In this document: positions 29,715 to 48,790 of the stretch, piece by piece
Position numbering within the stretch: the first letter of the stretch is position 1
Layout of the letters: each line of letters begins with the position of its first letter
Source: an uncultured bacterium
GTDB lineage: Bacteria; Patescibacteriota; JACMRA01
Assembly (NCBI GenBank): GCA_963784355.1
Contig: CAWAQU010000007.1
Coordinates: 96,001 to 160,000 of the forward strand
DNA: 64,000 nucleotides
Direction of reading: 5' to 3'
The notes under the pieces: generated by a model
The model's database searches: none
Told to the model about the DNA's origin: nothing
Seen by the model: the letters and a program-made list of their open reading frames with translations, nothing else
Program-made: the position numbers and the translations under genes

Positions 29715-32700
29715 TTACCCAATCTCCACCTGCAACCCAGTAGCAGTAACAGTATAGGTGCCTTGAGGTAAATCAGTAAACTGGAACTTACCATCAACTG
29801 CTGTACTTGCTTGTCTATTTATTGTAATACCATTAGGCCCTGTACCGGATAGATTAACTTGTACACCACCTATTGGCTCATCGTTATCTTCTAAAGTATA
29901 TATATCCTCATCAAGTCCTGAAATATCAAAACTACCATTATTTTCCTTATCCCTAAATACTTTTCCTGTTATGGAAGAGTTGGAAGTGAGTACCGGAGTA
30001 AACTGGAAGAAGTTGATTGTTGATTTTTGATATATACTTGTATTTGTGATAGTTAGAGTTACCTCACTAACTGAACCTAAGTTGACAGTGGTTGGATCTT
30101 CTCTTTCTCCAGACCTACTTTTAGTTGTATTTGTGTTTAGTTTGCCGGTTAAGTTGTTGAGCTTTTTAATTATGTAAGTACCAGGTTCTAAATATGGGCC
30201 TGTATCAAAGTTACCAATAGTACTGTAAACTACTTCACCATTTTGTTTCTTAACTTCAAAGTTACAACCAGCTACCGGCCCATCAGCTGGGTTGTTGGGA
30301 TAAGTACTAAGCTGTCCGTCACCATTTTTATCATCAATACACTGCCCCTTTAATTTATTAGTATACACATAAATCAGATTATTTGTGATAACTGTACTAT
30401 TATCTATATTGACACCAGCTTTAACTATATCAGCATCGCTGTAGTCTACACCTCCAATCATAGTTGTACCCCATACCCACTTTTCACTAAGTATTTTCTT
30501 ACATTTAATTGTAGTTAAACACTGATCAACTACACCGGAAGCGTACTGAATTGGTATAATAGCGTTAGGAATAGGATTACTCTCCCCCTCGCCATCACTA
30601 AACTTATGCAATTTGTAATTACCAGTTGGCAGTCCTGTAATTTCGTAGTCTCCGCTTGAGTTTGCTGTAGCTGTGTAGGTACCAAGAGGCCCTACCACAG
30701 AAACTACCGTACCTGCAAGTACCGTTTCCCCAGTATTATATTCATTCTCACCTTGCTCGTCGCGTTGGTTGATAAATACTTTACCCTTAATAATATTGTT
30801 AGTGAAAGGACTAAATGGATAGTTCTTTGCTAAATTTTCACTAGCCAAAATACCTATAGGATCAGGGTTAGATAAACCGCCGCCTAAGGTAATTCCGGAT
30901 GGAATATTGTTAATACTAACTGAGTAATTTCCCGGCATCAAATTTCCAATTCCGGTTTGACCGCAACATGGATTTGGGCCAACGTTTGTAGCTACTACAG
31001 AGTTATCAGCTGTAGTTAAAGGATCACCTGTATAAGTCAGGGTAAATCTTATTGGGCCACCTTTTTCAGTTGCTAATTCAGACTCATCCCAGATACCATT
31101 GGCAATTGTGTCATGAAAGGCTCCTATAGTAAAGACTGCATTGTAGTCATAAGTAAAGTCTTGAGTAGTGTTGGTGTCTTGGTATACATATGTCCCTTCA
31201 GCAATGCACATTAAACAAGTTGTGCCACTTGGCGCCACGTCAGCAACTTGTACTCTGTAATATCCTTCAGCAAGGCCTGGGAAGTTGTACTCACCGTTTT
31301 GATTAGTATTTTGGGTAGCAATAAGTATATTATGCATATACAGCTGAATAATTTTTCCACTATATAGCTGTTCATTATCAAAAACAGTTGCCGGATTATT
31401 ATCTAAACCATTTGCTTCATAATCAGTGCTGCCTCTGTTTAAATATACTTTTCCACTTATGCTACTATTGTTTGTTGGGATAAAGCCGTAAGTAAGACTA
31501 AAGTTTTTAGTGATGTTATCAACTGTGAATTGTTTAGTAAGCTCGCTACCGGATAGTGGTGGATAAGGAGACTGCACTTGGGTAAATTCAACTTTGTAAT
31601 CTTTATTAGGAAGTCTTTTGAATATGAGTGTAGCTGGGTCTGTATAATCTGTTTGTGAGCTTACATTACCCAGAATATTCCCAGTAACTGCATCTTTAAA
31701 GACATAGACTCCTGTAGTGATTATAGTTTGATCTCTTCTACCATTGCTTTCATCTCCGTCTTGTTGATTGTTATGATTTTGGTCGATATACAACTGATTG
31801 CCTACATTACCGGTGTATCCAACAGCAAAGTCTCTATTTCTACTATCTACATTAGTTCCAGGAGTGATAGAACCATAATCTCCTCTATTGCGTAAGTTAT
31901 TAAAGAAATACCAACCTTTGTCTCCAAGGTAACTATTACACACAGTACTAGGTAAGCCCGTTAAACTTCCTTCTTCAGGTAAAGTTGTGATTTTAACTAC
32001 CTGATATGCTCCGGGTACTATACCTGTAAAGCTGTATTTACCATCACTATCTGTTGTAGTAGTTGGTGGGTTTAGATTCCACTGATTGACGTCGGCTTGA
32101 GTTTCTCCATATCCTCCCTCACATTTTATCAATTTAAACTGAACGCCTGAATATCTAAAGTCATCATCAAAACCATAGTCATGTCCGTCTGAAATACCAG
32201 TTTGCCCGTTGTTACCTAGTGGCTCATAGCTACCGTCTCCATCCCTATCATTCCAGATGTAACTTGTGATTGAAGAAGATGACATATTTGGAACGTAAGC
32301 AGCACCAGGATAATATCTAAAGCTAACCTCAGAAGTACTTCCTAGGTATACTGTAGTATTTTGTTCTGTAGCTGATAGTTCTGAGTAGAGCTGCTGATCA
32401 AACGGACTTTGAGAGTCGGGAATTAGAATAACAGTATAGTCTCTAGGTGGTATTTCTCTAATACAAGGATTTGCTGTGTTTAGAGTATAGATTTCCGTAG
32501 TTTGAGTAGATAAATAGCTATTGTATCTTAGCTGTACTTTGACCCCATAATCCAGTAAATTGGTATCTGTTGAGTCCAAATCACCATCGTTATTTTTATC
32601 AACATAGACTAAAGGACAAATCTTGGCGGTGTATTCAAATCCGAAGTTCTTATTTCTTATTTTTTCATTGGTTGTTACAGTACTAGCTAAAATTGAATTA

Positions 32701-35700
32701 GTCGGAAGCACTGCCTCAGTACCAAGTGGGGTAGGGACTCTTGTCTCGTAGTCACCCGGTTCAAGATTGATAAATTCATAATTACCATTAACATCAGTGA
32801 TAGTATAGATAGGAGCATCACTAAAGGCATTTGTGGTAGTATTTTTCTTGTATAACCTGACTTCTTTTTCAGTTAAAACTACATCGTTATCAAACACAGT
32901 GATTTCCAAAGTATCTTGACCGTACTTATCAAAAACTCCATTTCCGTTTCTATCAATATATACATTACCTCGAATAGCACCTTTATTGAAGCTAGAGTTA
33001 TTTGTATAACCAAAGTTCAAGGTAGTGTAGCTAGATGAAGCTATTGTCACTGCAACATTGTTTCCTCCTGTAGTTGATGAATATCCATTTGGAATAGTCT
33101 GCACAACTTTGTAATTATTTGGGAATAAATTATTGAAACAATCATTTCCACCACTGGAAGTACTAAAGCTTTTAATTACAGTATTAGGATCACTGGTTCT
33201 GTAAAGTTTAGTCAAAACACCTGGTATTTGAGCCTCATTTTCATCTTTACTCTCGTTAAAGTTTAAATCGTTGTAAGTATTTACTAAACAGATACTAGAA
33301 TTACCGTTGTAACCAAATTCAATATTTTTAGTTTCATTTGGCTGCAATACGACCAGTTGGTCTCCACCTGTTGTGCTGCTGCTGCCATTAGGAGCATCTT
33401 GGGTAATCAAATATTGCCCTGGAGCTACTCCATTGAAACAAGTGCTATTTGAGTTTGATACAACATCAGTCACTTTAGTTTCTAATATTGTTCCGTCGGT
33501 TGATTTTCTGTAGGTTGTGATGTTATCCAGTAGTATATCCTGGCCACTATTAAATTGACCTGGGGTCACAACATCTTCAAAGGTTTTAGCGGCGCAGATA
33601 TTACCATTACCATTGAAACCGAATTTAGGCCCAGCTTCTACTCCAAAGCTTGTGGTGATTGTTAGGTTTAAAGGTGTGGTATTGCTGTAACCGGTTGGAA
33701 TATTACTTGCACTCAGCTTATATTCACCTATTACTTGCGGATTGAAACATTGTTTAGTACTGCTGGTAGTTAGCTCACCGATTGTAATAGTTTCATTACT
33801 ATTTTTCAGAGTTATTTTTACTCCACCAAGCCTTACTTCACCACTATCAAAATTACCATTACTATTATCATCTCTAAATACTAAAGGACAAATCTTCGGG
33901 TTTCCGTTGTAACCGAATTTAACTGTTTTAGTTTCTCCTGAAGTAAAAGTACCAATGGATTGCTCCAGGCCTGTAGTTGAAATAGTATTTTCCAGTAGCG
34001 AAGCGGTTACTTTGTAGTAATTATTGAAAGCAATTATGTCAGTAAAACAGAGAGTGCCATTTGCTTGGAAAGAATTTACTTGATTACCATACTTATCTTT
34101 TAAGCTAACTGTAACACGCCCGTCGTTTATGAGATTTTCCCCCAAGTCGTAATTTCCGTCGCTGTCATAGTCTTCAAAAATCTGATTAGGACAAATCTGA
34201 CTATTTCCTTTGTAATTAAAGATAACATTTTGATCTTGAGCAAAGTTTACAGTCACATTTACTTTGGCAATGTTGGTAGTTTGAGTAAAGCCTCCTGTAG
34301 CATTTGTAATGGTAGCTCCGGTAGGTACAGTTTGCTCTATCCTATAATTACCCGGAATTACATCAGTAAAACAATTACCACTTCCACTTGGTAAATCAGC
34401 TCCAACTTGTTGGTTGTTAGAAACCTTGATTAATTTGCTAATTACACCATCAATTTCAGGCTCACCGGCATTGTTAGTACCATTTTTATTGTAATCATTT
34501 ATGGCAACAGGGCAGACTTTACTGTTACTGTAATAACCAAATTCAGCATTAGTTCCATCATTATTTACGAAGTTTTTAGTTTCCCCATTAGCTAAACTTA
34601 TATTTCTGGTTTGCTCACCTTGAGTTAAGCTTTTTGTGTTAGTGGTATTACCATCAGGAGACTGTTTAACCGTATAATTCCCCGGCATCAAATCTGCAAA
34701 ACAGTTAGTGTTATTGGTGTTGAACTGCCTGACTACTTTAGCACTGTCAATTAGAGTTGTTGTATAGCCAGCTATTAAAGGCTCACCCACGTCTTGAATC
34801 TTGTTTTTATTATCATCTCTAAAGGTAGGATTTGGACAAATTTGCCCGGTACCTTTGTATCCGAAGTAGACAGATTTATCAGTTTCAGGATCTAAACTTA
34901 CAGTCTGAGTTTGGATATTTCCGGTTGTTGTACCTGTAGTTGAAACTCCACCAGTTGGAATAATCTGCTCAATAGTGTAAGTTTTGTTTGGACTAACGGC
35001 TGCAAAACACTTGGTAGAAGAACCATCAGAAGTAATAGTTTCAATTACTGATCCGTTATCTTTAAGAGTACTTACTACTCCAATCATTAATGGTTCGTTT
35101 TCAAAAGTACCAAAAACGCTACTATTATTAATGTAGTCTCTAAATGGTAGGGGACAGACTTTTGCATTTCCTGTAAATACTTCAAAAGTAGAAGAGGCTT
35201 GTAAATTAGGGTTGGTGTCTCCGGCAGTTTGAGTAACTGCTGTATTTCCTGTACCGGCTTGATTTGGAATTGGGTCAACTGTACATACACCGTTTGCTAC
35301 AACTCCAGTTTCAGTAATTGGAGAGTTAAAGCTGGGCCCTGAAAATGTCATACTACAAGTAGCCCCATCCGTACCTTCCAGAGGCTCGTCGTTACCTGTA
35401 TCTTCCAATCCGCTAGTTCTAGCTGTAAATTTGTATCCGGCGTATACCTTATTAATTATGGTATTGTTTGCTCCATATGTGGTACTTAAGACTGTGCCTG
35501 TATTTTTTAATACTGCAGTACTGTTAGTTGCCAGTTTAGCTTTACCGCTAGCAAGCAGTCTATAGCCAAAAGCTGTGTCTTGATTGACTCCGAAAGCTAA
35601 TGTAATAGATTGTCTGACTTTATTGCCAGCTACAGTTCCACCGGTTGAAGATTGTGAGTTGGTGACTAAGTCTTGCTCTACGGTATAGTTTCCTGGAGCA

Positions 35701-38700
35701 ATAGGGCTGAAACAAATCTGTCCACTTTGATCTGTAGATACTTGTTGTTTCAAAGTATTTAAATCGCTACTTAGATACAGTCTTGTTATTTTGCTGTTTA
35801 TTGGTAAATCACTTCCACCAAAGCTACCATATCCTGGTTGACCGGCTTTATCTTTTTCCAGATAAGTTCTGTTGATACAGATTTGAGCGTTTCCGTTGTA
35901 AGCGAAGTTTTTTGTTTCAGTTGTATTTACTCCTAAAACTATCTGGTATTTTACTTTTCTATTTAGATTATCTACAATTACCCCGTTATTAGTTGCCAGC
36001 GGGAAAGTAAGGGTGCCTCCTACCGGATAACTCTGCTCTACAAAATATGTATCATCAAAGAGACTATTAAAACAATTATCTATACTTGTATTAGTTCCGT
36101 TAGTACCATCTACTGTAGTCAATGTTTTTCCGGAAATCGGATTTTGATTAGCATCCAGTAATCTGGTAGCTACACCTGCCAGTAAAGGCTCAGTACTTTC
36201 TTTAGTACCGTTACTATTATCATCTCTAAAGGTATTATTTACACAAATCTTAGAAGTTGGTGAGTACCTTACTTCAGTAGGAGTAGTAGCTGTTTCATAG
36301 GTATAGCTCGCGTTGAAATCAGTATTAAACACACTTACTACTGTTTTTAAAGTAGCACTTCCCGTAGAGCCTACTTGAGCTGCGGTGAAGTTTGTTGCAC
36401 ATTGTCCTTGGCTATCTAGTGTTGAAGTAACTGCAACTTCAGGATTTGCTCCGATTTTTAGAATATTTTTACAAGTTTGCCCGGTTAAATTACCGTTATT
36501 AGCAAAATTTCTAATATTTGGAGAGTAAATTATGGCAGATTGACCGGCAACAAGTGGGTTAGGGGAGAAGGTAAGAGTACCTGGAATAGTCCCTGTAAGA
36601 CCATTATTACCTGTTAGGTACAAATCAAAGCGTCTACTAAAGTTTGTTGTGTTTGTAGTTAGGGTCGTGTCATCACCATTTGAATTTTTACCGGCAACAG
36701 AGACAGTAAAGCTATAGCTTCCTTTTAAGTAACCTAACTCACTTCCTGTTGGGCTAGAAGTGCAAGTACCATTACTTGCTGCAGCTGAAGTTAAGCTAAA
36801 TTGACTACTGTCAGGTTTAGTGATTTTGAACTCACAAGTAGGCCCGTTTAAAGGTTGATTATTTGCAGAATCTGTAAGGCCTGAAACAGTTAAATTAACA
36901 CTTGTACCAACAAAAGTTGTAGTAACAGTAGTAGATCCGTTTACTGTAGGGGAATTGGAGACCGGAGTAGTACCGGTAGCTACCTTTGCTTTGTTTGAAG
37001 GAAAGCCTGTAGTTGGTATAGTAGTTTGGTTAGTTTCAAAAGGATAGTTTGTACTGCTATAGTTTAAAAGAACTATTGTTTTGACTTTCAAGACACCTGC
37101 AGTAATTACATTATTTGCAATTGTAGTCACACATTTTGAGCTTGCATCAAGAGTTGAAGCGTATTCTATTGGAGTCTGGCTATCAATTTGTACTAGGTTT
37201 TTACAAACTAGGCCTTGAGCTAAGTTAGTCGAGTTATCATATTTTTTGATAGTTGGAGAAGTTAGAGTAGGGTTAGCTCCGCCTGAAACAATCGGGCTAC
37301 TGCTAGATGTAATACTTCCCGGTATCTTACCATTTACATCAAAACTAGTTCCATTTGTTAGGTAAATGTCAAAGTATCTGTTGAAATTAGATGTATCCGT
37401 AGTCAAGCTACTACTTGGCCCCGCTACCGAAATACTAGCTGAGTATGTACCTGCTACATATGGTAAATCAGAAGGGGTAAAAGTTTTTTTACACACACCA
37501 CCAACAATGTTACTATCAGAAGCAAAGGTTTGGCTATAGCTATTTGGCCCCGTTATATTAAAAGTACAAGGTATACCATTTAAAGCTTGGTCGTTACCGG
37601 AGTCTTTTAATCCATCAAAAGTTAGGACTATATTACTACCGATAAAACCAGGATTAGGATTGGAAGTTAAAGAGTTGTAAATTGGTTTAGTTTGATTTGG
37701 TGAAGACTGAGCTTTTGCTTTATTGGAAGCAGAAGGGTAAACTGGAAAACCAACTACTTTTCCTTCCGTACTACCTCCACTAGTTACGCTTAAATTAGCT
37801 GTAAAGCTAGTAGCTTGAGTATCAACTGTATCGGGCGCAGGGAATGAAGCTGTAGTTACGCATGTACCCTGGCTTACAGTACCAGTTTTGGCTACTGGGG
37901 TAGAATAGTTTCCGGGGCCATTAATTGTAATTGTGCAAGTACCTGAATATACATCTCCTCCATATTTATTTTTAATATTACTTATACCACCTAGGAAAGT
38001 AGCTCCGGTTGATACTGGGTTAGGGTTTGGACTAAATAGAGCTGAAGTTAAATTAGTTTCAGGTGTATTAGGATCATAGATAGTACCAGTACAACCTGAA
38101 GTAGTAGCCGGGTAAGCAGCAGTAGCTGCCTCAGCGCAGTCACCGTTACCAGCTCCACCATTTACTGTAATTGAAGCCGTGGATGTGCCTTGTGACATAG
38201 TGCCTGTACGGTTGATGTAGTAAAGAGCAATACGGCCTCCTGCTCCGGCGCCACCATTTCCAGTAGAGTTTCCTCCTCCACTAGCACTAATACTACCACC
38301 ACCTGCTAGAGTATTAGCTGTGAGCCAAATGCTACCTCCTGAGCCTCCTCCACTACCATAAGCACCACCGCTTACATTTCCATTAGCACTAATACTACCA
38401 TTAACTGTAATAGTACCAGTTGCTACAAGTTTAATAGCTCCTCCTCCGTTTCCTCCATCTGCCGCACCTGAACAATATCCTCCACTTCCACTACCTCCTG
38501 AACCAAGATCAAGTGGTTCTGTAAGTGATCCATAACTGTTCCCCCCGATATTACCTGTATCAGAATCTCCTCCTTTTCCTCCATAACCTCCACCTGCTCC
38601 TCTTTGACCAGAACAATTAGCGGTAGCCGCTCCACCACCAGTACCGTTACCAGGTTGACCTGCGTTGGCACCTCCACCCGTATAACCCCTTCCATTCACA

Positions 38701-41700
38701 TCAATCTTAGCACCTGTATCTAACGTAATATTATTTGAGTTAATTATGACACTATTATCATGAGTAGCTACATTAGCTCTATGAGTAATAGTACTACCAC
38801 TATTAACAGTTAAAGTATTAAAGTTATATGTGTTTTTAGTACCTAGAGTAACTAAACTACCTGATTTGACTAAGAAAGTATCTGTTACAGTAGGAGTATT
38901 AGTTGTAGTTAAGTCTAAATTAGCGTTTTCAATAGTTAAATTAATTACTGTAAAAGCTGAACTAATAGGTGTAGTAGCAATATTACTTGAAGCAGTAGTA
39001 TTTCTAATAATCAAATCACCATTAGTTTTATCAGCAGGCTTATCATATATTGTACCTGCTCCTCCAGTTTGAAATCCAGTTCCTCCTGAAGCTGTAACAG
39101 CTCCTGAGAAAGTTTTACTTGCTGCTGTTGGGTAGTAAAGAGCAATACGGCCTCCTGCTCCGGCGCCACCATTTCCAGTAGAGTTTCCTCCTCCACTAGC
39201 ACTAATACTACCACCACCTGCTAGAGTATTAGCTGTGAGCCAAATGCTACCTCCTGAGCCTCCTCCACTACCATAAGCACCACCGCTTACATTTCCATTA
39301 GCACTAATACTACCATTAACTGTAATAGTACCAGTTGCTACAAGTTTAATAGCTCCTCCTCCGTTTCCTCCATCTGCCGCACCTGAACAATATCCTCCAC
39401 TTCCACTACCTCCTGAACCAAGATCAAGTGGTTCTGTAAGTGATCCATAACTGTTCCCCCCGATATTACCTGTATCAGAATCTCCTCCTTTTCCTCCATA
39501 ACCTCCACCTGCTCCTCTTTGACCAGAACAATTAGCGGTAGCCGCTCCACCACCAGTACCGTTACCAGGTTGACCTGCGTTGGCACCTCCACCCGTATAA
39601 CCCCTTCCATTCACATCAATCTTAGCACCTGTATCTAACGTAATATTATTTGAGTTAATTATGACACTATTATCATGAGTAGCTACATTAGCTCTATGAG
39701 TAATAGTACTACCACTATTAACAGTTAAAGTATTAAAGTTATATGTGTTTTTAGTACCTAGAGTAACTAAACTACCTGATTTGACTAAGAAAGTATCTGT
39801 TACAGTAGGAGTATTAGTTGTAGTTAAGTCTAAATTAGCGTTTTCAATAGTTAAATTAATTACTGTAAAAGCTGAACTAATAGGTGTAGTAGCAATATTA
39901 CTTGAAGCAGTAGTATTTCTAATAATCAAATCACCATTAGTTTTATCAGCAGGCTTATCATATATTGTACCTGCTCCTCCAGTTTGAAATCCAGTTCCTC
40001 CTGAAGCTGTAACAGCTCCTGAGAAAGTTTTACTTGCTGCTGTTGGGTAGTAAAGAGCAATACGGCCACCTGCTCCGGCGCCTGGAGTACCACCAGTACC
40101 AGCGTTACCACCATTAGCAGTAATACTACCACTACCTGCTAGAGTATTAGCTGTAAGCCAAATGCTACCTCCACTTCCACCTGCTCCTCCATAGCTGCTA
40201 CTTCCACCATCATTTCCATCAGCACTAATACTTCCATTTACTGTAATAGTACCTGTCACTTGTAATTTAATAGCTCCTCCTCCGTTTCCTCCATCTGCCG
40301 CACCTGAACAATATCCTCCACTTCCACTACCTCCTGAACCAAGATCAAGTGGTTCTGTAAGTGATCCATAACTGTTCCCCCCGATATTACCTGTATCAGA
40401 ATCTCCTCCTTTTCCTCCATAACCTCCACCTGCTCCTCTTTGACCAGAACAATTAGCGGTAGCCGCTCCACCACCAGTACCGTTACCAGGTTGACCTGCG
40501 TTGGCACCTCCACCAGTATAACCTCTCCCAACCCCATTAAGCGTACTACCCACACCTATATTCACACTACTTGCATACACTTTAAGTCCAACTCCCTGAG
40601 CTACATTTACAGTAGTTCCTGCTGCTACAGTAAACACTCCTACGTTACAATATCTTCCTGTTAGAGTATCTCCATTAGCTGGAGTAAGATTTGCTCCTTG
40701 AAGATCATTATCACAGTCTAGTTTATTTATACTTACTGTATTTGAGTCTACACTATTACCTGCTCCATTTGCAGCTATTATTTTAAATTGATAATCTTGA
40801 CCTGGAGTAAGACCTGTTACTGTACTATTTGGATTTGTATTAACTCCATCATTATATATTGTTTCAGTAGTAAAATTATTTTGACTATATTTAATTATAT
40901 AATCAGTAATACCACTTCCATTATCAAAAGGAGTTGTCCATTTTAAAAATACTTTATCTCCTTCTGTTTTATCTACAACTAAATCAGTAATAGGGTTAGC
41001 TTTACTAATACCTCCATAAGTAAAACTATTAAATACAACTGAACTAGTCCCATCAGAGTTGGTAATCTTTACAGTTTGAGTACCTGTACCACTTGGAGTG
41101 TAAATTGTAGCTGTAGTAGAGTTGACAAGGTCAGCATATACCTCATTAGCTCCTATTTTAACTATGATACCTCTATTTTCAGAAGATAAGCTTGTAGTTG
41201 GCATGGAGCTGGTATTGTATAATCTATACTTGGTGTTTAGGTAGGATTCGATTGTTTGGCGGTCGGGGTTTGAGAGAGAAGAATTAAAAATTAAAGTTTC
41301 AGCTATATCTCCACTATGATTACCATATGTATCACTACCCAACTGTTTTGGAGCGTACACTGTAGTTTTAGGTGAAGTTAGTCCAGTTCTTACACTTGAA
41401 CCGTTAAGGTATATGGTTGGCTGTTTTGCAGTGTACTGTAATCCTATTAAATTGTTTACTGTTCCTACATTTCCATTATATACTGCCAAAGGCGGCATAT
41501 AGCTGGCCCCATGCTCATATATAGAAATACCGTTTGTACCAAGAGAAATACCAGCCCCCGCATCCATATTTGAAGGCCATAGTAAGTATCTTTGCCCACC
41601 TGTACCAGTGGCTGTACCATTGCTTTCTGCATCAATCTCATGAGTGACATCAGTTTTTGCTACGGAAAAAACAGTAAAATCATTGGTTGCCGGATGATTA

Positions 41701-44700
41701 GCACTTGCAATAAAATCATTACTACCATCAAACCTAACCACAGGCAACCCATTAATCACCCCACTCTTATACACAGGTTGATTAGCTGCAGTAGCTTGAA
41801 CAGCATTATTGTTACTTCCACTTCTATCACTCCATTGACTGACAGCTTGTCCATCAGTACTAGTACCAGCTCCATCATTAGCTTTAAGCCATAACTTATT
41901 ATTAGTACCACTTAGTACTGAACCAAATGAAAAATTATTAAGATTGCTTTGTGAAGTTAAGCTAGGTTCATTATATCTAACAAAAACCTTTTTGCTGCTA
42001 TTTGCTCCTATACTAGGTACCTTCACCCATACCACAGTACTACCACTACCACAACCTCCATCTATCCAATAGTTTAAATCAGTAGTTCCATCAGCATCCT
42101 TTATTCTTAAATCTCCACAATCACTTCTCATTTTACCTGCTGATATTAAAGATTGAGTATCTAATACAAAACTAGTTTCATAGTTACTAAGAGCTGAGCC
42201 TGGGTTGGTGAGAGTTAGTGTTCTTTGGTAAAGATTAGACCCAAAATTGTTACCAGTAATAGTTAGAAAAGTACCTCCACTATTAGGACCTGTATTTGGA
42301 GAGATAGATGTAATACTTGGAGCTACATAACTAAAGCTAAAACTATTACTACCAGTTCCATCTGGATTTACTACTTTAAGCTGTACTGTACCCAAAGCAT
42401 GAGCTGGTGTAATTACTTTAAGTTGGGTAGGGGAGATGTATTGGGTTTGAGATATGAGATTACCATCTATGTTGACGCCACCCCCAAAAGAACCTTCTGT
42501 ATTTGATATTGATACAGTTGGCATGGAGCTGGTATTGTAGAGTTTGTATTTTGTGTTTAGGTAGGATTCTACCACTGAACTATTTTCCGGACTCAAATCA
42601 CTACCCAAGCCTATTATTTCTGCTATATCAACATTTAGATAGTATGTATTCTCAGTAGCAGCTAATTGCATTGATCTAATATCAGTAGGGCTAGCTGTTT
42701 TTAAATTCATCAACATTGGGCTATCAATAGGGGTAAGATTAAACGGATTCACTAAATCTGTACTATTTTTCCTAACTGCTCTTGGGTATGGGTTGAAATG
42801 AAGTATAGTATTCCCTGATTCAAATAAACCCATCCTATTCCCGCCTGAGTTTCCAAGTATACCTCCATAACTAGTAAAGTTAGGAGTGTTTGATTTAAAA
42901 ACTGTAAGATATTGAGAAATTGCTGCTGGATTTTGTATGTTAAGTGTATCATTACTACCATCAAACCTAATCACAGGTAATCCATTAATCACCCCACTCT
43001 TATACACAGGCTGATTAGCTGCAGTAGCTTGAACAGCATTATTGTTACTTCCACTTCTATCACTCCATTGACTGACAGCTTGTCCATCAGTACTAGTACC
43101 AACTCCATCATTGGCTTTTAACCATAACTTATTATTAGTACCACTTAGTACTGAACCGAATGAAAAATTATTAAGATTACTTTGGGAAGTTAAACTTGAA
43201 TCTCCATAAGTAAGATAAACAGTCTTACTACTACTTGCTCCTATACTTGGAACTTTAAACCATACTAAAGTACTACCAGTATTACAACCACTTTCTATCC
43301 AATAACTAAGATCAGTAGTTCCATCAGCATCTTTTATTCTTAAGTCTCCACAATCACTTCTCATCTTTCCACTACTAATCAAACTAGCTGTATCAACCAC
43401 CACACTTCCTTCATAGTTAGTTAGGGGAGTAGTTGATGGGTTGGTTATTGTGATTGTTTTTCTTATTCCTATAATACCAAAGTTACTTCCATTAACAATA
43501 ATCTCTTTACCTCCTGTTGTAGGACTCTCACTAGAACTTAATGAACTAATACTAGGTGCAGCATAAGTAAAGTTAAGACTACTAGTTTCAGTTCCATCAG
43601 CATTAACTATTTTTACTGTAACTGTACCGGGAGCATGTTGAGGAGTTGTAAACTTGAATTGAGATTGGGAAAGTAACTGAGCGCCACTAACTATAGTTCC
43701 ATCTAGCTTTACTTTATTTAGGGATAATTCACTGCCTATTGTAGTGGTAGCTATACTAGAGGTGTTGTATAGCCTGTATTTAACGTTTAAAAACTTTTCT
43801 ACATTCTGACGATCTGTATTGGATAAAGATGAGTTAAACACCAATACCTCGGCAATTTGTGCATTTGAGTATTCTCCAAAAGAAGGGGTACCATTCAAAG
43901 AAATACCATTTGGGCCTGATAGTCCTCCCGCATTACTTGCTATCAAAGTACCGTTTCCATAAATACTTGAAATCGAACCTGTTCCCCCGCCGGAGTATAA
44001 ATTCCAGGATGTATCTGAAGGTGTACTACCGTTAGCTACCCAGCCGTCAGGATGAAATTTATCTTTACCACCTCCCCAGTACCCAAACAACCAGTTATTA
44101 TTCACACCTGCCATTACTCGACTATTAGCCCCTCCAGTCTGCCTAGAGACATAAAGTACGCTATATGGCGGTTGGAAATTTGTATTATTTGTAAGAGTTT
44201 GTGAAGCTGCTGCTGAAAACTCGACTACCGGCAAACCATTTAAAATATTAGATTTAAATTTAGGTTGTCTAGTGGCTGTGGCTTGTGTAAAATTATTATT
44301 ATTTCCACTCTTATCACTCCATTGACTGATTGACTGTCCATCTGCAGTGGCTCCCACTCCGTCATTGGCTTTAATCCATGATTTTAAATTAGCACCCCCT
44401 AATATACTGCCAAAGCTAAAATTTGATATATTACTCTCACTAACCAAACTACTATTACCATAATTCAAATAAATACTCTTACTTGCTCCGGCTGAAATAC
44501 TAGGTACTTTTGCCCAAATTACAGTACTACCACTACCACAACCTCCATCTATCCAATAATTCAAACTAGTAGTTTTATCACTATCCTTTATTCTTAAATC
44601 CCCACAATCACTTTTCATCTTACCTGTGCTTATCAAGCTAGCTGTATCTAAAGTAAAACTAACTTCGTAATCAGTTAAATTAGTTGCTCCAGCTCCACTA

Positions 44701-47555
44701 TTATTAATCACTACTTCTCTCTCATAACCATTCCCAAAATTACTACCATCAATAACTACTTCAGTCCCTCCACTTGTAGCTCCACTACTAGGACTAAGAC
44801 TAGTTATCTTAGTAACAAAAGTAACACTACTTGTATCACTAGCTACTCCACTACCACTTGAATTTGTTGCAACTACTCTAAAACTATAGTTAGGCCCAAA
44901 CTTTAAATTATTTATTGTAGTACTTGTTCCTGTAATTGAATTTGAGTGAGTAAAAATATTATTGTTAAATCCATCATTACTATACTGAACACTATAACTA
45001 CTTGCTCCACTTGTACTATTCCAGCTTAAATTAGCACTAATCTCATCAGCATTTTTAACTGCACTAAGTCCTGTAACTTTATCAGGTACTCCTAAGGGAG
45101 AACTAGATTCATTAGAGGTAGCTAAAGTATAGTAACCATCTTGTAAATCAGCATTTGCTACAGAAAAGCTAATTTGATCACCATTAGCTAGGGTAGGGGT
45201 AGTATTTGCTACAGTAGAAAAACTACCTGTGTTACTAGATCTATAAAGCAATCTATAGTTACTAATGTTTCCGGGTAATCCACCTGTATATTTACTTAAA
45301 TCAAAACTAACTTTAGCATCTACTCCATCAGTAACAGTCTTTTTAATACCCCAGACTTTATTCCATCTTTTAGTTGTTCCTGAAGGTAGGTCAGAAGTTA
45401 CTACTGTTTTACCAGCTCCATCATTACCTGCAAAAACATACTCTCCATCAGCTAAGCTGTTGTTGGATTGAGCTAGCTCTAATTCATCACTAAGATTGTT
45501 ATTTACTCCTCCATCAGACTCTTTACCAATACCGGCAAGGTTATTTGTAGCAGAGGTTAAGTTGTATTTACTGCTGGAAAGAGTTAGACCATACTTAGAA
45601 GCTAAGTAGTTTTCTATGATTGTGCGTTCTGTGGTAGACAAAGCTTTTGGTAGGATTATTATTTCGGAGATGTCGCCTTTTAAATTGTAAGCTGAGTTAG
45701 CAGGGTAATTTCCTATCTTAGTAATATTGAATGCATCGGTAGCCATGCCTGAGTTTGTAGGACCCGCTGTGCCATTTAAATAGCTTATTGCAGTTGTCCC
45801 ATTTTGAACTGAGCCCATTACCGCATAGCTATTATCTAATGTGGATCCAGATTCTGCTACTCCTCCTGCACCGCTGCCGGCATCATTGTGGGCTATTACA
45901 AACTTATTTCTTTTGATATTTGAGTAAGTTCCGACTGTCGCAACTCCAAAATATTTATCTGATGGACCTGTTCCTAAATAAATACTACCTGTTGCAGAGT
46001 CATTATTATTGGCAACAATGAAAGCTGATACCTTATCACTAAAGCTAACATTATTTAGGTCAAAGTTTTTTGTACCATCAAACCTAACAACCGGCTTACT
46101 ATTTAAAGTATTATCAACTAAGCTAGGTTGACTTGTAGCTGTAGCTTGAGTAGCATTATTCCCAATACCACTTTGATCTTGCCAGTTACTAATCTTTCCT
46201 GATCCGTCTTTAACTATACCACTATCAGCTTTAAGCCATAGACTTGTTTTAACTGTATCACAACCTGCAACAGGTAAATTATATTTTTTGGATAGGTAGC
46301 ACTCGGCTTGTTTTCTTTCTGAATCTGATAGAGCTCGATCATAGATCAATACTTCAGAAATATCACCGTTAAAATCACCAGGGCCAATCGTCGTAGCTCC
46401 CGTAGTGGTATTGACTCCTGATGTAGAATTACTAATAGATTGATTTTGACCATTTACAAATAAACTCGCTGTGGCTCCATCTCTCATACCTGACCATAAT
46501 TCCCAGTTAGTAGTAGCTGCACCATCACTCACCCAGGCTATACCAGCGTGGTGAATATTTCTTGTCCCTCCATTAAAATACAAACCAGCTCCATTTGCAT
46601 TCTGTACAATACCTTTAGTTGATCCTGTATCATTAGTCTTAGCAACAGATATCATAGTATAAAAACCATTACCAACTACTACATTTGCAGTAGAAAGATT
46701 ATCATTACTCCCATCAAACCTAACCACTCCCTTCCCATTTAACCCACTACTCACCAACAACGGCTGACTACCCTCGCTACTCTGACTAGCATTATTACTA
46801 TTCCCACCACTAACATCATTCCAACTCTTCACATACTTAGTTCCGCCACTATCTCTAACCTGACTACTATCACTTGCATCAATTTGACTAGCATCTAATC
46901 TTAACTTTAATCCATCTGTAACTGTTAAATCATCAGGATCATTATTATAGTTTAATCCTGCGCTTCCTTTCTCAGCATCATCATCAAGTATAGTATAGGT
47001 AAAACTAGCAGTACTACCTAAAACAACTCCACCGGTAGGACTAGACAGCGTAACTACAACAGTCTCATTACTTTCAACCCCACTATCATTAACTATCTTT
47101 AAAGGAACACTACCAACTGTTTGGCCTGCTGGAATAACTAAACTTCCACTAGCTAAACTATAGTCAGCTCCATTACCTGTAGCCGTACCACCTGTGACAG
47201 TAAAATTAACTGAAGTACTACTAGTAGTAGCCTGAGATAAATTAACAGTAACTGAAGGATTACTAGTAACTTCAAGACCTGCTGATGAACTAGTAAGAAA
47301 CTGTATAGTACTACTACTTGCCTTAGCATTATTTAAATTTAAAAGACTAGGTAATATAGCTGTGATAATTACTATTGTACCTAGACCAATTAAACTACCA
47401 AGGACTATTACTTTCTGTTTTTTTGATAGCTTAAAATTCTTTAGAGCTGGGAAAGAGAAAAAGGAAAGCCTACTGGCTATTACCAGTCTATTAAACTTAA
47501 GTCTTTTATTTAGATTTACCTTAGCACTCTTTAATACTTTACTTAGAAAGTTCAT
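29715..47555 (-). CDS. Giant N-anchored surface adhesin (5946 aa): Calx-beta, 5 LamG-like lectin modules, FN3, 3 IPT/DUF2341 units, Gly-rich repeats, Cys-paired Ig-like domains, about 18 SdrD-B-like domains
   Basis: Uninterrupted ORF; basic N-tail plus TM helix; TILDDD (Calx-beta); WLKA..W.D.SG..N.A.Q...P...RFDG...GDI.E (LamG-like); SDCGDLR..YWI..W.KVP (DUF2341); SP..G...GGT...G.NFG (IPT); F.D.N.NG..D.GE..G.Y.V...FGY (SdrD-B). Confidence 0.9.
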   Translation of the reverse strand: MNFLSKVLKSAKVNLNKRLKFNRLVIASRLSFFSFPALKNFKLSKKQKVIVLGSLIGLGTIVIITAILPSLLNLNNAKASSSTIQFLTSSSAGLEVTSNPSVTVNLSQATTSSTSVNFTVTGGTATGNGADYSLASGSLVIPAGQTVGSVPLKIVNDSGVESNETVVVTLSSPTGGVVLGSTASFTYTILDDDAEKGSAGLNYNNDPDDLTVTDGLKLRLDASQIDASDSSQVRDSGGTKYVKSWNDVSGGNSNNASQSSEGSQPLLVSSGLNGKGVVRFDGSNDNLSTANVVVGNGFYTMISVAKTNDTGSTKGIVQNANGAGLYFNGGTRNIHHAGIAWVSDGAATTNWELWSGMRDGATASLFVNGQNQSISNSTSGVNTTTGATTIGPGDFNGDISEVLIYDRALSDSERKQAECYLSKKYNLPVAGCDTVKTSLWLKADSGIVKDGSGKISNWQDQSGIGNNATQATATSQPSLVDNTLNSKPVVRFDGTKNFDLNNVSFSDKVSAFIVANNNDSATGSIYLGTGPSDKYFGVATVGTYSNIKRNKFVIAHNDAGSGAGGVAESGSTLDNSYAVMGSVQNGTTAISYLNGTAGPTNSGMATDAFNITKIGNYPANSAYNLKGDISEIIILPKALSTTERTIIENYLASKYGLTLSSSKYNLTSATNNLAGIGKESDGGVNNNLSDELELAQSNNSLADGEYVFAGNDGAGKTVVTSDLPSGTTKRWNKVWGIKKTVTDGVDAKVSFDLSKYTGGLPGNISNYRLLYRSSNTGSFSTVANTTPTLANGDQISFSVANADLQDGYYTLATSNESSSPLGVPDKVTGLSAVKNADEISANLSWNSTSGASSYSVQYSNDGFNNNIFTHSNSITGTSTTINNLKFGPNYSFRVVATNSSGSGVASDTSSVTFVTKITSLSPSSGATSGGTEVVIDGSNFGNGYEREVVINNSGAGATNLTDYEVSFTLDTASLISTGKMKSDCGDLRIKDSDKTTSLNYWIDGGCGSGSTVIWAKVPSISAGASKSIYLNYGNSSLVSESNISNFSFGSILGGANLKSWIKANDGVGATADGQSISQWSDKSGNNNNFTQATATRQPKFKSNILNGLPVVEFSAAASQTLTNNTNFQPPYSVLYVSRQTGGANSRVMAGVNNNWLFGYWGGGKDKFHPDGWVANGSTPSDTSWNLYSGGGTGSISSIYGNGTLIASNAGGLSGPNGISLNGTPSFGEYSNAQIAEVLVFNSSLSNTDRQNVEKFLNVKYRLYNTSSIATTTIGSELSLNKVKLDGTIVSGAQLLSQSQFKFTTPQHAPGTVTVKIVNADGTETSSLNFTYAAPSISSLSSSESPTTGGKEIIVNGSNFGIIGIRKTITITNPSTTPLTNYEGSVVVDTASLISSGKMRSDCGDLRIKDADGTTDLSYWIESGCNTGSTLVWFKVPSIGASSSKTVYLTYGDSSLTSQSNLNNFSFGSVLSGTNNKLWLKANDGVGTSTDGQAVSQWSDRSGSNNNAVQATAANQPVYKSGVINGLPVIRFDGSNDTLNIQNPAAISQYLTVFKSNTPNFTSYGGILGNSGGNRMGLFESGNTILHFNPYPRAVRKNSTDLVNPFNLTPIDSPMLMNLKTASPTDIRSMQLAATENTYYLNVDIAEIIGLGSDLSPENSSVVESYLNTKYKLYNTSSMPTVSISNTEGSFGGGVNIDGNLISQTQYISPTQLKVITPAHALGTVQLKVVNPDGTGSNSFSFSYVAPSITSISPNTGPNSGGTFLTITGNNFGSNLYQRTLTLTNPGSALSNYETSFVLDTQSLISAGKMRSDCGDLRIKDADGTTDLNYWIDGGCGSGSTVVWVKVPSIGANSSKKVFVRYNEPSLTSQSNLNNFSFGSVLSGTNNKLWLKANDGAGTSTDGQAVSQWSDRSGSNNNAVQATAANQPVYKSGVINGLPVVRFDGSNDFIASANHPATNDFTVFSVAKTDVTHEIDAESNGTATGTGGQRYLLWPSNMDAGAGISLGTNGISIYEHGASYMPPLAVYNGNVGTVNNLIGLQYTAKQPTIYLNGSSVRTGLTSPKTTVYAPKQLGSDTYGNHSGDIAETLIFNSSLSNPDRQTIESYLNTKYRLYNTSSMPTTSLSSENRGIIVKIGANEVYADLVNSTTATIYTPSGTGTQTVKITNSDGTSSVVFNSFTYGGISKANPITDLVVDKTEGDKVFLKWTTPFDNGSGITDYIIKYSQNNFTTETIYNDGVNTNPNSTVTGLTPGQDYQFKIIAANGAGNSVDSNTVSINKLDCDNDLQGANLTPANGDTLTGRYCNVGVFTVAAGTTVNVAQGVGLKVYASSVNIGVGSTLNGVGRGYTGGGANAGQPGNGTGGGAATANCSGQRGAGGGYGGKGGDSDTGNIGGNSYGSLTEPLDLGSGGSGSGGYCSGAADGGNGGGAIKLQVTGTITVNGSISADGNDGGSSSYGGAGGSGGSIWLTANTLAGSGSITANGGNAGTGGTPGAGAGGRIALYYPTAASKTFSGAVTASGGTGFQTGGAGTIYDKPADKTNGDLIIRNTTASSNIATTPISSAFTVINLTIENANLDLTTTNTPTVTDTFLVKSGSLVTLGTKNTYNFNTLTVNSGSTITHRANVATHDNSVIINSNNITLDTGAKIDVNGRGYTGGGANAGQPGNGTGGGAATANCSGQRGAGGGYGGKGGDSDTGNIGGNSYGSLTEPLDLGSGGSGSGGYCSGAADGGNGGGAIKLVATGTITVNGSISANGNVSGGAYGSGGGSGGSIWLTANTLAGGGSISASGGGNSTGNGGAGAGGRIALYYPTAASKTFSGAVTASGGTGFQTGGAGTIYDKPADKTNGDLIIRNTTASSNIATTPISSAFTVINLTIENANLDLTTTNTPTVTDTFLVKSGSLVTLGTKNTYNFNTLTVNSGSTITHRANVATHDNSVIINSNNITLDTGAKIDVNGRGYTGGGANAGQPGNGTGGGAATANCSGQRGAGGGYGGKGGDSDTGNIGGNSYGSLTEPLDLGSGGSGSGGYCSGAADGGNGGGAIKLVATGTITVNGSISANGNVSGGAYGSGGGSGGSIWLTANTLAGGGSISASGGGNSTGNGGAGAGGRIALYYINRTGTMSQGTSTASITVNGGAGNGDCAEAATAAYPATTSGCTGTIYDPNTPETNLTSALFSPNPNPVSTGATFLGGISNIKNKYGGDVYSGTCTITINGPGNYSTPVAKTGTVSQGTCVTTASFPAPDTVDTQATSFTANLSVTSGGSTEGKVVGFPVYPSASNKAKAQSSPNQTKPIYNSLTSNPNPGFIGSNIVLTFDGLKDSGNDQALNGIPCTFNITGPNSYSQTFASDSNIVGGVCKKTFTPSDLPYVAGTYSASISVAGPSSSLTTDTSNFNRYFDIYLTNGTSFDVNGKIPGSITSSSSPIVSGGANPTLTSPTIKKYDNSTNLAQGLVCKNLVQIDSQTPIEYASTLDASSKCVTTIANNVITAGVLKVKTIVLLNYSSTNYPFETNQTTIPTTGFPSNKAKVATGTTPVSNSPTVNGSTTVTTTFVGTSVNLTVSGLTDSANNQPLNGPTCEFKITKPDSSQFSLTSAAASNGTCTSSPTGSELGYLKGSYSFTVSVAGKNSNGDDTTLTTNTTNFSRRFDLYLTGNNGLTGTIPGTLTFSPNPLVAGQSAIIYSPNIRNFANNGNLTGQTCKNILKIGANPEVAVTSTLDSQGQCATNFTAAQVGSTGSATLKTVVSVFNTDFNASYTYETATTPTEVRYSPTSKICVNNTFRDDNSNGTKESTEPLLAGVATRLLDANQNPISGKTLTTVDGTNGTNTSIDNCFNSLFDDTYFVEQSYPVGGTLTFPLATNNGVIVDNLNRKVKYQIVLGVNTTETKNFAYNGNAQICINRTYLEKDKAGQPGYGSFGGSDLPINSKITRLYLSSDLNTLKQQVSTDQSGQICFSPIAPGNYTVEQDLVTNSQSSTGGTVAGNKVRQSITLAFGVNQDTAFGYRLLASGKAKLATNSTAVLKNTGTVLSTTYGANNTIINKVYAGYKFTARTSGLEDTGNDEPLEGTDGATCSMTFSGPSFNSPITETGVVANGVCTVDPIPNQAGTGNTAVTQTAGDTNPNLQASSTFEVFTGNAKVCPLPFRDYINNSSVFGTFENEPLMIGVVSTLKDNGSVIETITSDGSSTKCFAAVSPNKTYTIEQIIPTGGVSTTGTTTGNIQTQTVSLDPETDKSVYFGYKGTGQICPNPTFRDDNKNKIQDVGEPLIAGYTTTLIDSAKVVRQFNTNNTNCFADLMPGNYTVKQSPDGNTTNTKSLTQGEQTRNISLANGETKNFVNNDGTNAEFGYYSNSKVCPVAINDYNKNGTNNAGEPEIDGVISKLIKVSNNQQVGADLPSGSGNCFTDVIPGNYRIEQTVPTGATITNATGGFTQTTNIAKVNVTVNFAQDQNVIFNYKGNSQICPNQIFEDYDSDGNYDLGENLINDGRVTVSLKDKYGNQVNSFQANGTLCFTDIIAFNNYYKVTASLLENTISTTGLEQSIGTFTSGETKTVKFGYNGNPKICPLVFRDDNSNGNFDSGEVRLGGVKITLKNSNETITIGELTTSSTKQCFNPQVIGEYKLSASNIPTGYSNTTPLNLTITTSFGVEAGPKFGFNGNGNICAAKTFEDVVTPGQFNSGQDILLDNITTYRKSTDGTILETKVTDVVSNSNSTCFNGVAPGQYLITQDAPNGSSSTTGGDQLVVLQPNETKNIEFGYNGNSSICLVNTYNDLNFNESKDENEAQIPGVLTKLYRTSDPNTVIKSFSTSSGGNDCFNNLFPNNYKVVQTIPNGYSSTTGGNNVAVTIASSSYTTLNFGYTNNSSFNKGAIRGNVYIDRNGNGVFDKYGQDTLEITVFDNDVVLTEKEVRLYKKNTTTNAFSDAPIYTITDVNGNYEFINLEPGDYETRVPTPLGTEAVLPTNSILASTVTTNEKIRNKNFGFEYTAKICPLVYVDKNNDGDLDSTDTNLLDYGVKVQLRYNSYLSTQTTEIYTLNTANPCIREIPPRDYTVILIPDSQSPFDQQLYSELSATEQNTTVYLGSTSEVSFRYYPGAAYVPNMSSSSITSYIWNDRDGDGSYEPLGNNGQTGISDGHDYGFDDDFRYSGVQFKLIKCEGGYGETQADVNQWNLNPPTTTTDSDGKYSFTGIVPGAYQVVKITTLPEEGSLTGLPSTVCNSYLGDKGWYFFNNLRNRGDYGSITPGTNVDSRNRDFAVGYTGNVGNQLYIDQNHNNQQDGDESNGRRDQTIITTGVYVFKDAVTGNILGNVSSQTDYTDPATLIFKRLPNKDYKVEFTQVQSPYPPLSGSELTKQFTVDNITKNFSLTYGFIPTNNSSISGKVYLNRGSTDYEANGLDNNPATVFDNEQLYSGKIIQLYMHNILIATQNTNQNGEYNFPGLAEGYYRVQVADVAPSGTTCLMCIAEGTYVYQDTNTTQDFTYDYNAVFTIGAFHDTIANGIWDESELATEKGGPIRFTLTYTGDPLTTADNSVVATNVGPNPCCGQTGIGNLMPGNYSVSINNIPSGITLGGGLSNPDPIGILASENLAKNYPFSPFTNNIIKGKVFINQRDEQGENEYNTGETVLAGTVVSVVGPLGTYTATANSSGDYEITGLPTGNYKLHKFSDGEGESNPIPNAIIPIQYASGVVDQCLTTIKCKKILSEKWVWGTTMIGGVDYSDADIVKAGVNIDNSTVITNNLIYVYTNKLKGQCIDDKNGDGQLSTYPNNPADGPVAGCNFEVKKQNGEVVYSTIGNFDTGPYLEPGTYIIKKLNNLTGKLNTNTTKSRSGEREDPTTVNLGSVSEVTLTITNTSIYQKSTINFFQFTPVLTSNSSITGKVFRDKENNGSFDISGLDEDIYTLEDNDEPIGGVQVNLSGTGPNGITINRQASTAVDGKFQFTDLPQGTYTVTATGLQVEIG
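38217..40514. repeat. 915-bp in-frame tandem repeat, about 2.5 copies
   Basis: Units start at 38217, 39132 and 40047; the first two appear identical and the third is partly diverged; shadow ORFs recur at 915-nt offsets. Confidence 0.95.
41716..43193. repeat. About 245-bp near-identical direct repeat (41716-41960 and 42949-43193)
   Basis: Both copies encode SQSNLNNFSFGSVLSGTNNKLWLKANDG...RFDGSND with only scattered substitutions. Confidence 0.9.
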
Positions 47556-47793: not shown

Positions 47794-47822
47794 ATTATAT
47801 TCTACTTTTTTATTTTATGCAA
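47794..47822 (-). promoter_or_regulatory. Sigma70-type promoter of the giant adhesin
   Basis: TTGCAT-N17-TATAAT on the minus strand. Confidence 0.7.
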
Positions 47823-48755: not shown

Positions 48756-48790
48756 AATTTAAATTGTTGTTTAGTATTTGTTTAAGCTCT

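Follow-up and report, generated by a model that had tools for sequence, protein, structure and literature searches.

How a single giant adhesin gene comes to hold lectin-like modules with dissimilar cores inside frames that look alike is the question raised by a 64,000-nucleotide (nt) stretch of DNA (the window; positions 96,001 to 160,000 of contig CAWAQU010000007.1, assembly GCA_963784355.1) from an uncultured bacterium of the Patescibacteriota lineage JACMRA01. The window holds a giant surface-protein gene on the minus strand (29715..47555), a single open reading frame (ORF) of 5946 amino acids (aa) that is open under translation table 11. An earlier note on this DNA had proposed a cassette-exchange system, in which the binding-specificity cores of five LamG-like modules are swapped by recombination between homogenised constant frames, diversifying host or substrate range with neither a reverse transcriptase nor an invertase. 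Our data suggest a plainer process, to which we assign a probability of roughly 0.7, i.e. general homologous recombination of the RecA type within a family of two giant adhesin genes, resulting in a cassette-like architecture without a dedicated machine.

Two modules share a near-identical entry tract

A profile built from the modules themselves and run on the giant gene finds all five LamG-like modules, as the earlier note had described. They lie on the minus strand at 46266..46874 (module 1; residues ~228-430, core ~46368-46709), 45576..46238 (module 2; residues ~440-660, core ~45678-46073), 43770..44378 (module 3, 'A'; residues 1060-1262, core ~43863-44210), 42540..43124 (module 4, 'B'; residues 1478-1672, core ~42633-42956) and 41220..41891 (module 5, 'C'; residues 1889-2112, core ~41313-41723). 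The entry and exit motifs occur in somewhat varying form, as module 1 has no WLKA and module 3 reads WIKA, VVEFSA and FLNVKYRL, and the cores enclosed by them are dissimilar and of unequal length (108-137 aa, 18-27% identical in pairwise global alignments within the gene). Modules 3 to 5 belong to three tandem super-units of the protein, each built as TIG-DUF2341-LamG-Ig-like (A, residues 914-1332; B, 1333-1744; C, 1745-2175).

The entries of modules 4 and 5 are alike down to the DNA. The module 5 copy at 41716..41960 and its pair in module 4 at 42949..43193, both on the minus strand and both covering the end of DUF2341 and the LamG entry as far as RFDGSND, agree at 234/245 positions, bearing out the near-identical frame of 245 base pairs reported before, and a repeat search around the tract returns 162 nt at 96% and 300 nt at 91%. 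The abrupt end of the tract after RFDGSND is seen as well: in successive 20-codon windows, nucleotide identity is 0.93-1.00 in the entry and then drops from 0.80 through 0.60 to 0.47, the 33-34 nt coding for RFDGSND being 79-88% identical in four of the five modules. On the far side of the cores, the exact match of 24 nt and the further match of 16 nt given in the earlier note both fall inside one short match 3' of the exit motif (41196..41249 vs 42516-42569, minus strand; 54 nt at 89%, encoding ..LYNTSSMPT..).

We compared units B and C segment by segment for synonymous divergence (dS, Nei-Gojobori), resulting in values of 1.2 for TIG, 0.92 for DUF2341, 0.22 for the entry tract, 2.4 for the core, 2.0 for the exit and 0.86 for the post-exit segment. 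Frames as diverged at synonymous sites as the cores, named by the earlier note as the mark of simple purifying selection after old duplications, are not found in these modules, the entry lying at 0.22 and the core at 2.4. At residues conserved between modules 4 and 5, the same codon is used at 69/78 positions in the entry tract versus 44/70 in TIG plus DUF2341 upstream (Fisher p = 0.0004) and versus 16/42 in core plus exit (p = 2e-8), all counts being non-overlapping. Since purifying selection on the protein cannot give such a synonymous contrast between the tract and its neighbours, the module 4/5 entry is, judged by its sequence, a product of gene conversion and not of selection alone, and a short conversion tract ending where similarity ends can explain the pattern of these two modules. 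Of the ten module pairs of the gene, this is the only one for which the notion of homogenised constant frames holds at the DNA level, DNA identity being 56-70% for the remaining entries. Homogenised arms on both sides of the cores are not supported, as synonymous sites in the module 4/5 exit are saturated at its dS of 2.0 and 8/16 codons are identical at positions with the same amino acid.

A second giant gene carries other cores on the same backbone

Searching the whole assembly with frames and cores (tblastn), we found a second full-length giant gene on contig C10 (~3712-20902), located among genes unrelated to the window flanks (peptidase M3, pseudouridine synthase and AhpC). Homology between the two genes extends from ~56 nt upstream of the start to the stop codon, and the paralog has kept a start codon of its own behind a similar 5' leader. 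Global alignment in 60-nt windows, combined with runs of perfect identity, shows the pair to be a mosaic: ~11.2 kb of 17.2 kb is identical backbone, the identical blocks abut segments of ~40% identity at cores 1, 3, 4 and 5, and stretches of 55-97% identity lie between the two kinds.

Followed along the minus strand, 47410-46753 is identical to the paralog apart from one 1-nt indel in the latter and ends nine codons before the RFDG of module 1, whereupon 46750-46350, holding core 1, is ~40% identical, the replacing core of the paralog being 26% identical. Identity is 85-97% in 46293-45940, and 45902-44430 comprises 1473 nt with zero differences, spanning the second half of LamG 2, fn3 and the TIG plus DUF2341 of unit A and ending just before module 3. 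In the following segment of ~40% identity (44445-43786), module 3 as a whole is swapped for a DUF2341 C-terminal part and another domain without Pfam match. A stretch of 95-100% identity (43726-43486) leads into a 55-97% patchwork (43486-41722) with cores at ~40% and an extra segment of ~460 nt in the paralog, and core 5 (41722-41182) is again at ~40%. Starting 33 codons after the module 5 exit, 41123-40582 holds 542 nt with zero differences; the Gly-rich repeats (40580-38250) are mostly 65-85% identical, and the C-terminal stalk (38252-29718, 8.5 kb) is identical except for ~17 substitutions and 16 one-base indels. The C10 copy thus has different cores between identical stretches of DNA, i.e. 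the alternative cores between the same flanks that the earlier note had predicted.

Core 2 is the sole core of the five common to both genes (92% aa). Within it, a patch of ~50 nt (45885-45933) shows 11 substitutions and a 12-nt indel against the paralog, identity being mostly 88-98% on its upstream side and 100% on its downstream side; the patch may stem from the exchange of a loop or from micro-conversion by a source not seen here. The third LamG of the paralog carries a module-4-type core (56% aa) at the position where the window gene has module 5, while its entry is 98% identical to that of module 4 in DNA. Comparing these two modules gives a frame dS of 0.077 and a core dS of 2.15 with a nonsynonymous divergence (dN) of 0.35, and the same codon is used at 76/80 conserved residues in the frame versus 24/58 (p = 1e-12).

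The second unit of the paralog contains an extra domain of ~170 aa (L001 ~8000-8542, residues 1295-1467), which is placed between WLKAN and the remaining LamG entry and has no Pfam match at E <= 1. Homologues of it stand directly upstream of a LamG module in the giant genes of 6/8 relatives, at 43-51% identity, and on this comparison it is an old domain. The Gly-rich tandem repeats of the window gene (38217..40523, minus strand) have a period of ~915-921 nt and are 96-99.9% identical to each other. The paralog (C10 ~12100-13560) has one unit fewer at a spacing of 870 nt, its units being identical to each other over 433 nt, and between the genes the units are ~57-98%, mostly 65-85%, identical, with all indels multiples of 3. 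Repeats alike within and unlike between genes present the classic picture of concerted evolution.

A reading without any recombination, in which old tandem duplications were followed by strong purifying selection on the strands of entry and exit while the cores diverged freely, accounts for the amino-acid pattern of modules 1-3. The entry (W.D.SG..N.A.Q…FDG) and exit (GD I.E…LS…YL..KY.L) motifs are conserved in protein across 36 modules from nine genomes, and they lie in the best-predicted parts of the fold: in an AlphaFold2 model of module 5, the sole module modelled (36-row alignment; predicted local distance difference test (pLDDT) 80.3, predicted template modelling score 0.83), a beta-sandwich jelly-roll is predicted with a pLDDT of 88-95 in the entry and 95-97 in the exit but only 47-73 in core residues 81-150. 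Entry and exit would therefore be conserved at the protein level because they form structural strands plus the C-terminal helix of the sandwich. However, selection alone would have to produce a frame dS of 0.08-0.22 beside 0.9-2.4 on both sides, and 1473 nt without a difference beside ~40% identity between the paralogs. It is contradicted by the dS contrast both for modules 4/5 and for the paralog, appears to hold only for motif conservation in modules 1-3, and as an account of the whole gene we consider it highly improbable.

Assembly of the paralogous locus

The source assembly comprises 1.14 Mb in 13 contigs with a GC content of 0.33-0.39 and is 81% complete. In it, C10:1-5790 is the reverse complement of C8:1-5797 (99.4%; 21 substitutions and 15 indel columns), the overlap beginning inside the 3' end of the paralog and taking in 3.7 kb of unique flank. 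C8 and C10 are thus neighbours whose overlapping ends were left unmerged, and the consensus in this place is noisy. A 2083-nt match at the start of C8 was considered as a third paralog and ruled out by this overlap, which includes the 3.7 kb of unique flank. The two contigs also differ at the end of the gene: the stop codon of the window gene is TAA at 29715-29717, both the C10 and the C8 version of the paralog have AAT there, and the C8 version reads ~15 codons further, to TAG.

Reading the C10 copy as a pseudogene or silent donor was our first interpretation of its 17 frameshifts, which are now mostly attributed to consensus errors. All 17 one-base indels fall in blocks otherwise identical to the window (chance ~0.0007 under an even spread), the overlap frameshifts, 4/4 of C10 and 2/2 of C8, are missing from the respective other contig, and every indel in the divergent parts of the paralog has a length divisible by three. 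Together, this suggests that most frameshifts are consensus noise in repeated DNA near a contig end, and the C10 copy is probably intact.

The same observations, i.e. 36 discrepant columns in an unmerged 5.8-kb end overlap of C10 and C8, frame-breaking indels confined to window-identical blocks and overlap frameshifts not shared by the other contig, would also be expected if the second copy, or its perfect identity, were an assembly artefact arising from misplaced strain alleles or from a collapsed repeat threaded into two contigs. We regard this as improbable, since the paralog lies inside a 66-kb contig between unique flanks of 45 kb and 3.7 kb, the latter continuing into C8, and since its divergent parts (cores, extra domain and Gly-rich units) form an open frame with in-frame indels only and have homologues in the genes of relatives. 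Its GC content of 0.348 fits the bin range of 0.325-0.385. The tract of modules 4/5 lies within a single gene and so is independent of the assembly of the paralog.

The cores belong to types found in other genera

The closest relatives of the giant gene come from metagenome-assembled genomes labelled candidate division SR1, Peregrinibacteria and Gracilibacteria. For tree building, 38 of 43 profile hits were kept (>= 35 bits, profile start <= 25, end >= 205); leaving out the N-terminally truncated G001_2385 and G012_2307 resulted in 36 modules from nine genomes, i.e. the own genome and eight relatives. In the core tree, module 5 is sister to a core of G007 and module 3 to a core of G025, a member of another family (Shimodaira-Hasegawa-like approximate likelihood-ratio test (SH-aLRT) 99 in both cases), while module 4 and the third core of the paralog group with cores of G018 and G022 (SH-aLRT 100). 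The nine cores of the own genome require seven changes on this tree, at least four of them forced by the branches starred in it. The frame tree, calculated from entry plus exit columns, unites modules 4 and 5 with the second and third modules of the paralog in one own-genome clade (86/93) and leaves module 3 with its G025 partner. The two trees are incongruent, and the congruence named by the earlier note as speaking against its proposal is not observed.

The expectation of fast-diversifying cores is not supported by these data: for three of the five, the sister cores come from other genera or another family (SH-aLRT 99-100), and the sole alignable core pair, module 4 and the third module of the paralog, with its dS of 2.15 and dN of 0.35, indicates old divergence under purifying selection and no rapid change. 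From these two lines of evidence we conclude that the cores are old distinct types under purifying selection, whereas some frames appear to have been made alike within the genome. Homogenised frames are also no conserved design. When each LamG-bearing giant gene was compared with itself under strict scoring, the window gene was the only one to show a tract over the LamG entry (246 nt at 95.5%), the giant genes of 0/8 relatives having a high-identity DNA tract at this place. In G018, a relative assembled as one contig, the two giant genes (5830 and 5913 aa) share no blastn match of >= 100 nt.

A close strain was sought in three sets. Among 41 genomes, 16 including the own one gave matches, the best non-self match being 48% identical and that of a same-genus genome ~40%; in metagenome contigs, 2/213 pattern matches were confirmed, at 58-59% identity; and among homologous proteins of 756-2155 aa, all 62 matches were <= 61% identical over part of the query. 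None of the three sets yielded a close strain.

Search for a dedicated exchange system

Searches by blastn and tblastn recovered no cassette archive from the 1.14-Mb assembly (81% complete), in which the window gene has a single further full-length copy. The same searches returned no orphan or promoterless cassettes, just the two full-length copies and a small LamG ORF. This ORF of ~250 aa (C10:43617-44273, plus strand) encodes a complete LamG module with the same motifs (..SQWSDKSGNN..; ..GDVAEVVIYNRALS..YLQAKW); its identity to the module 5 frame is 45%, and its DNA is not near-identical. Of the features that define silent-cassette systems of the pilE/pilS type, variable segments bounded by conserved DNA are found here, whereas the combination of one expression site with several promoterless donor cassettes is not. 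A family of the type of the bab adhesins corresponds more closely, as we find at least two loci, conserved ends, divergent parts and chimeric tracts of low dS, and as recombination machinery is encoded by recA (C9:75395-76162, 413 bits).

Regarding other machineries, the earlier note was right on two points: RVT_1 is absent from a six-frame search of the whole assembly (81% complete), i.e. no reverse transcriptase was found, and the window holds no invertase, matches to Resolvase and integrase families lying on C2, C3, C4, C9 and C10 and none on the contig of the window. The cores, being of unequal length and ~20% identical, are not point-mutated copies of each other and do not fit a diversity-generating retroelement. 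Neither do we see an invertase or shufflon arrangement, as the four inverted repeats in 40500-47700 are short and imperfect and none brackets a core. No G-quadruplex (G4) motif was found in 29-49 kb. MutS_V had no match in the assembly at its completeness of 81%; if mismatch repair were truly absent, recombination between diverged repeats would be easier.

The assembly contains two large serine recombinases as well as tyrosine integrases. One of the serine recombinases (C10:25660-27189; L028:4857-6371; Resolvase plus Zn_ribbon_recom, 504 aa) is located ~5 kb upstream of the paralog, separated from it by the peptidase M3 gene and an unknown ORF of 539 aa, and forms with an AAA_24 protein (C10:29169-30137) a region 5-9 kb upstream of the paralog that may be a mobile-element remnant.

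Programmed or high-frequency exchange, in which the two giant genes would act as mutual reservoirs and trade cores between constant arms often enough to change the host or substrate range within a population, in the manner of pilE/pilS, vlsE or MgPa/MgPar variation, would fit the presence of recA and of different cores within identical DNA at two loci. It would also fit breakpoints at or near the entry segment (46753, nine codons before the RFDG of module 1, and the end of the 4/5 tract at RFDGSND) and the likeness of the 33-34 nt coding for RFDGSND in four of the five modules (79-88%). The second copy, however, starts with a codon of its own and has a similar 5' leader, and no promoterless archive was recovered from the 81%-complete assembly, where the small LamG ORF has an entry frame of 45% identity. 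The exit arm of modules 4 and 5 is not homogenised, no G4 motif was found in 29-49 kb, and no inverted repeat in 40500-47700 brackets a core. Furthermore, the cores are old and under purifying selection, none of the eight relatives has a comparable tract, and the two giant genes of G018 have no DNA similarity. Programmed exchange is therefore unlikely in our view. We are equally doubtful of a working exchange pair, in which RecA conversion guided by entry segments and backbone moves cores or domains often enough for subpopulations to differ in attachment; if true, it would represent host-range switching free of retroelement and invertase in an episymbiotic small-genome bacterium.

Domain order, predicted fold and genomic setting

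From the N- to the C-terminus, the giant protein consists of a hydrophobic anchor, Calx-beta, two LamG, fn3, three TIG-DUF2341-LamG-Ig units, fn3, Gly-rich repeats and a stalk of SdrD_B/SpaA/CarboxypepD_reg domains. In the N-terminal part, Pfam finds in this order Calx-beta, Laminin_G_3 (two stretches), fn3, three TIG and three DUF2341 matches and fn3; on the C-terminal 3428 aa, it finds eight SdrD_B stretches plus SpaA and CarboxypepD_reg. The hydrophobic stretch is seen in the translation near the N-terminus, at residues ~50-72. Of the 84 positions of the DUF2341 profile, the best-scoring stretch matches 1-62 in the window gene and 1-83 in the paralog, where it belongs to the first unit. This domain content, together with the N-terminal hydrophobic stretch, suggests an adhesive role, the giant proteins probably being host- or substrate-binding surface proteins.

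Searched with Laminin_G_3 (PF13385), the N-terminal 2518 aa score 32.4 bits at a cut-off of 27.6, with two stretches that both lie in modules 1-2, and modules 3-5 are 29-33% identical to modules 1-2 in tblastn (E 1e-9 to 1e-17). The model of module 5 has 232 matches in a Foldseek search of the PDB at E <= 0.001. The top matches are ConA-like lectin or carbohydrate-binding domains (probability 1.0, template modelling score 0.45-0.64), and the matches include a cyanophage tailspike, a trans-sialidase lectin domain, AbnA domain 4, a PilC pilin module and the jelly-roll half of a neurotoxin binding domain.

On the window side, the giant gene has as neighbours a fasciclin protein, a DsbD-like protein, SufE and an Fe-S assembly protein. 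The spacer upstream of it (47556-48943) is unusually long at 1.39 kb, is AT-rich (GC 0.28) and holds an 89-codon ORF on the minus strand; a promoter scan upstream of the gene found sites to be no commoner than in shuffles. Immediately before the start codon, ~60 nt resemble each other in the two paralogs.

Discussion

The mechanism we propose starts from a two-gene family, each gene stringing several LamG/ConA-like modules on a long shared backbone, in which gene conversion would act wherever DNA similarity suffices. It would have acted between the entry segments of the tandem modules 4 and 5, with a tract of ~250-300 nt, and between the two paralogs across the whole backbone, and it would halt where similarity collapses, i.e. 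at the LamG cores and at the one whole-domain replacement. The outcome would be two adhesins that differ in their sets of lectin modules while sharing one stalk, as well as chimeric LamG domains with N-terminal strands and cores of different history. The pathway itself we infer from these products. Of the original proposal that cores are swapped by recombination, one part stands, as dS, trees and the C10 copy argue for recombination beyond purifying selection; two-sided arms, an archive and fast cores are not supported.

Cores brought into existing frames, or frames rewritten around cores already in place, would look the same in a single genome. Two histories of the gene pair are likewise compatible to the same degree with the data: repeated overwriting of the backbone of old paralogs, or a recent duplication of the whole gene followed by several imports of diverged segments. 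The graded patches of 55-97% identity and the Gly-rich repeats, alike within and not between the genes, speak for the former.

Several points weigh against our interpretation. In the approximately unbiased test on frames, the clade of the module-4 core type is rejected at p = 0.033, a borderline value obtained for groups named after the core tree had been seen, and the grouping of module 5 with its G007 partner is not rejected (p = 0.14). The comparison is confined to one genome of this strain, so direction and recency of exchange are not directly observed. The paralog as assembled contains 17 frame-breaking one-base indels, and the noise in the assembly of its locus makes both the exact identities of 100% and its intactness uncertain. 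The breakpoints are close to the entry and exit motifs, yet mostly not exactly at them, RFDGSND in modules 4/5 being the place where they coincide. Modules 3, 4 and 5 gave no Pfam match at E <= 1 when scanned singly, their LamG assignment being based on likeness to modules 1-2 and on one predicted fold. Finally, that the cores set ligand specificity, that the predicted LamG modules bind sugars and that the protein mediates adhesion are suggestions drawn from domain content.

Members of this radiation with small genomes are believed to live on other cells in an attached state, and the candidates usually named for recognising the host are giant surface proteins (PMC8080830, PMC11809585). In the present genome, ~3% of an assembly of ~1.1 Mb is spent on two 18-kb genes with one shared stalk and different sets of old lectin folds. 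Recombination that keeps the shared parts identical would give a concrete picture of how an attachment repertoire is built and reshuffled in such genomes, and natural LamG chimeras with the same N-terminal strands and different cores are material for structural and binding work. The mechanism would be ordinary homologous recombination, and it becomes important only if exchange between the loci proves frequent.

Comparison with known systems

In the silent-cassette systems of antigenic variation, such as pilE/pilS, vlsE, MgPa/MgPar and tprK, segments bounded by conserved sequence undergo RecA-dependent gene conversion. The giant genes resemble them in having variable segments between conserved sequence; they differ in that we find no promoterless array and no hypervariability, in that their cores are old and conserved across genera, and in that they are known from the sequence of one genome. 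Concerted evolution of near-identical tandem repeats is a feature of long bacterial surface proteins, e.g. of 'periscope proteins'. Similarly, the Gly-rich units of 915-921 nt and the entry tract of modules 4/5 would be kept alike by intragenic recombination, whereas the latter tract covers part of the repeat unit, ends inside a domain and adjoins cores that are unlike.

Closest to our interpretation are the adhesin paralogs babA, babB and babC of Helicobacter pylori, of which chimeras formed by intragenomic gene conversion are described (PMC4552749). In both cases there are at least two paralogous adhesin loci whose 5' and 3' parts are conserved and enclose a divergent one, and chimeras are attributed to homologous recombination between loci. 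In contrast to what is reported there, the genes described here are 18 kb long and have several variable islands, each corresponding to a whole domain or to the inside of a LamG fold, they show no phase-variable repeat, and the evidence comes from one genome of an uncultured small-genome bacterium and not from populations. For the surface proteins of Porphyromonas gingivalis (the adhesin domains of Kgp and HagA), domain rearrangement and allelic exchange have been described among 23 strains (PMC5266723). They share with our genes variant adhesin domains within a conserved multi-domain frame and a mosaic unrelated to the genome phylogeny, and they differ as exchange takes place between strains there and would take place here between two paralogs and tandem modules of one genome.

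Within the candidate phyla radiation (CPR), Vampirococcus lugosii encodes giant membrane-anchored surface proteins of the adhesion type with a proposed function in host recognition or attachment (PMC8080830), and DUF2341 is found in Patescibacteria proteins of > 4000 aa (PMC11809585). Our proteins share the very large size, the membrane anchor and adhesion-type domains including DUF2341; what sets them apart from these accounts, in the portions used here, is the mosaic of paralogs and the replacement of LamG cores. A keyword search of the open-access literature found no earlier description of such a paralog mosaic in CPR/Patescibacteria, which is no proof of absence. Giant DUF2341 surface proteins and gene conversion of adhesins are each already known, and the LamG-core mosaic between paralogs would be a new instance in this radiation.

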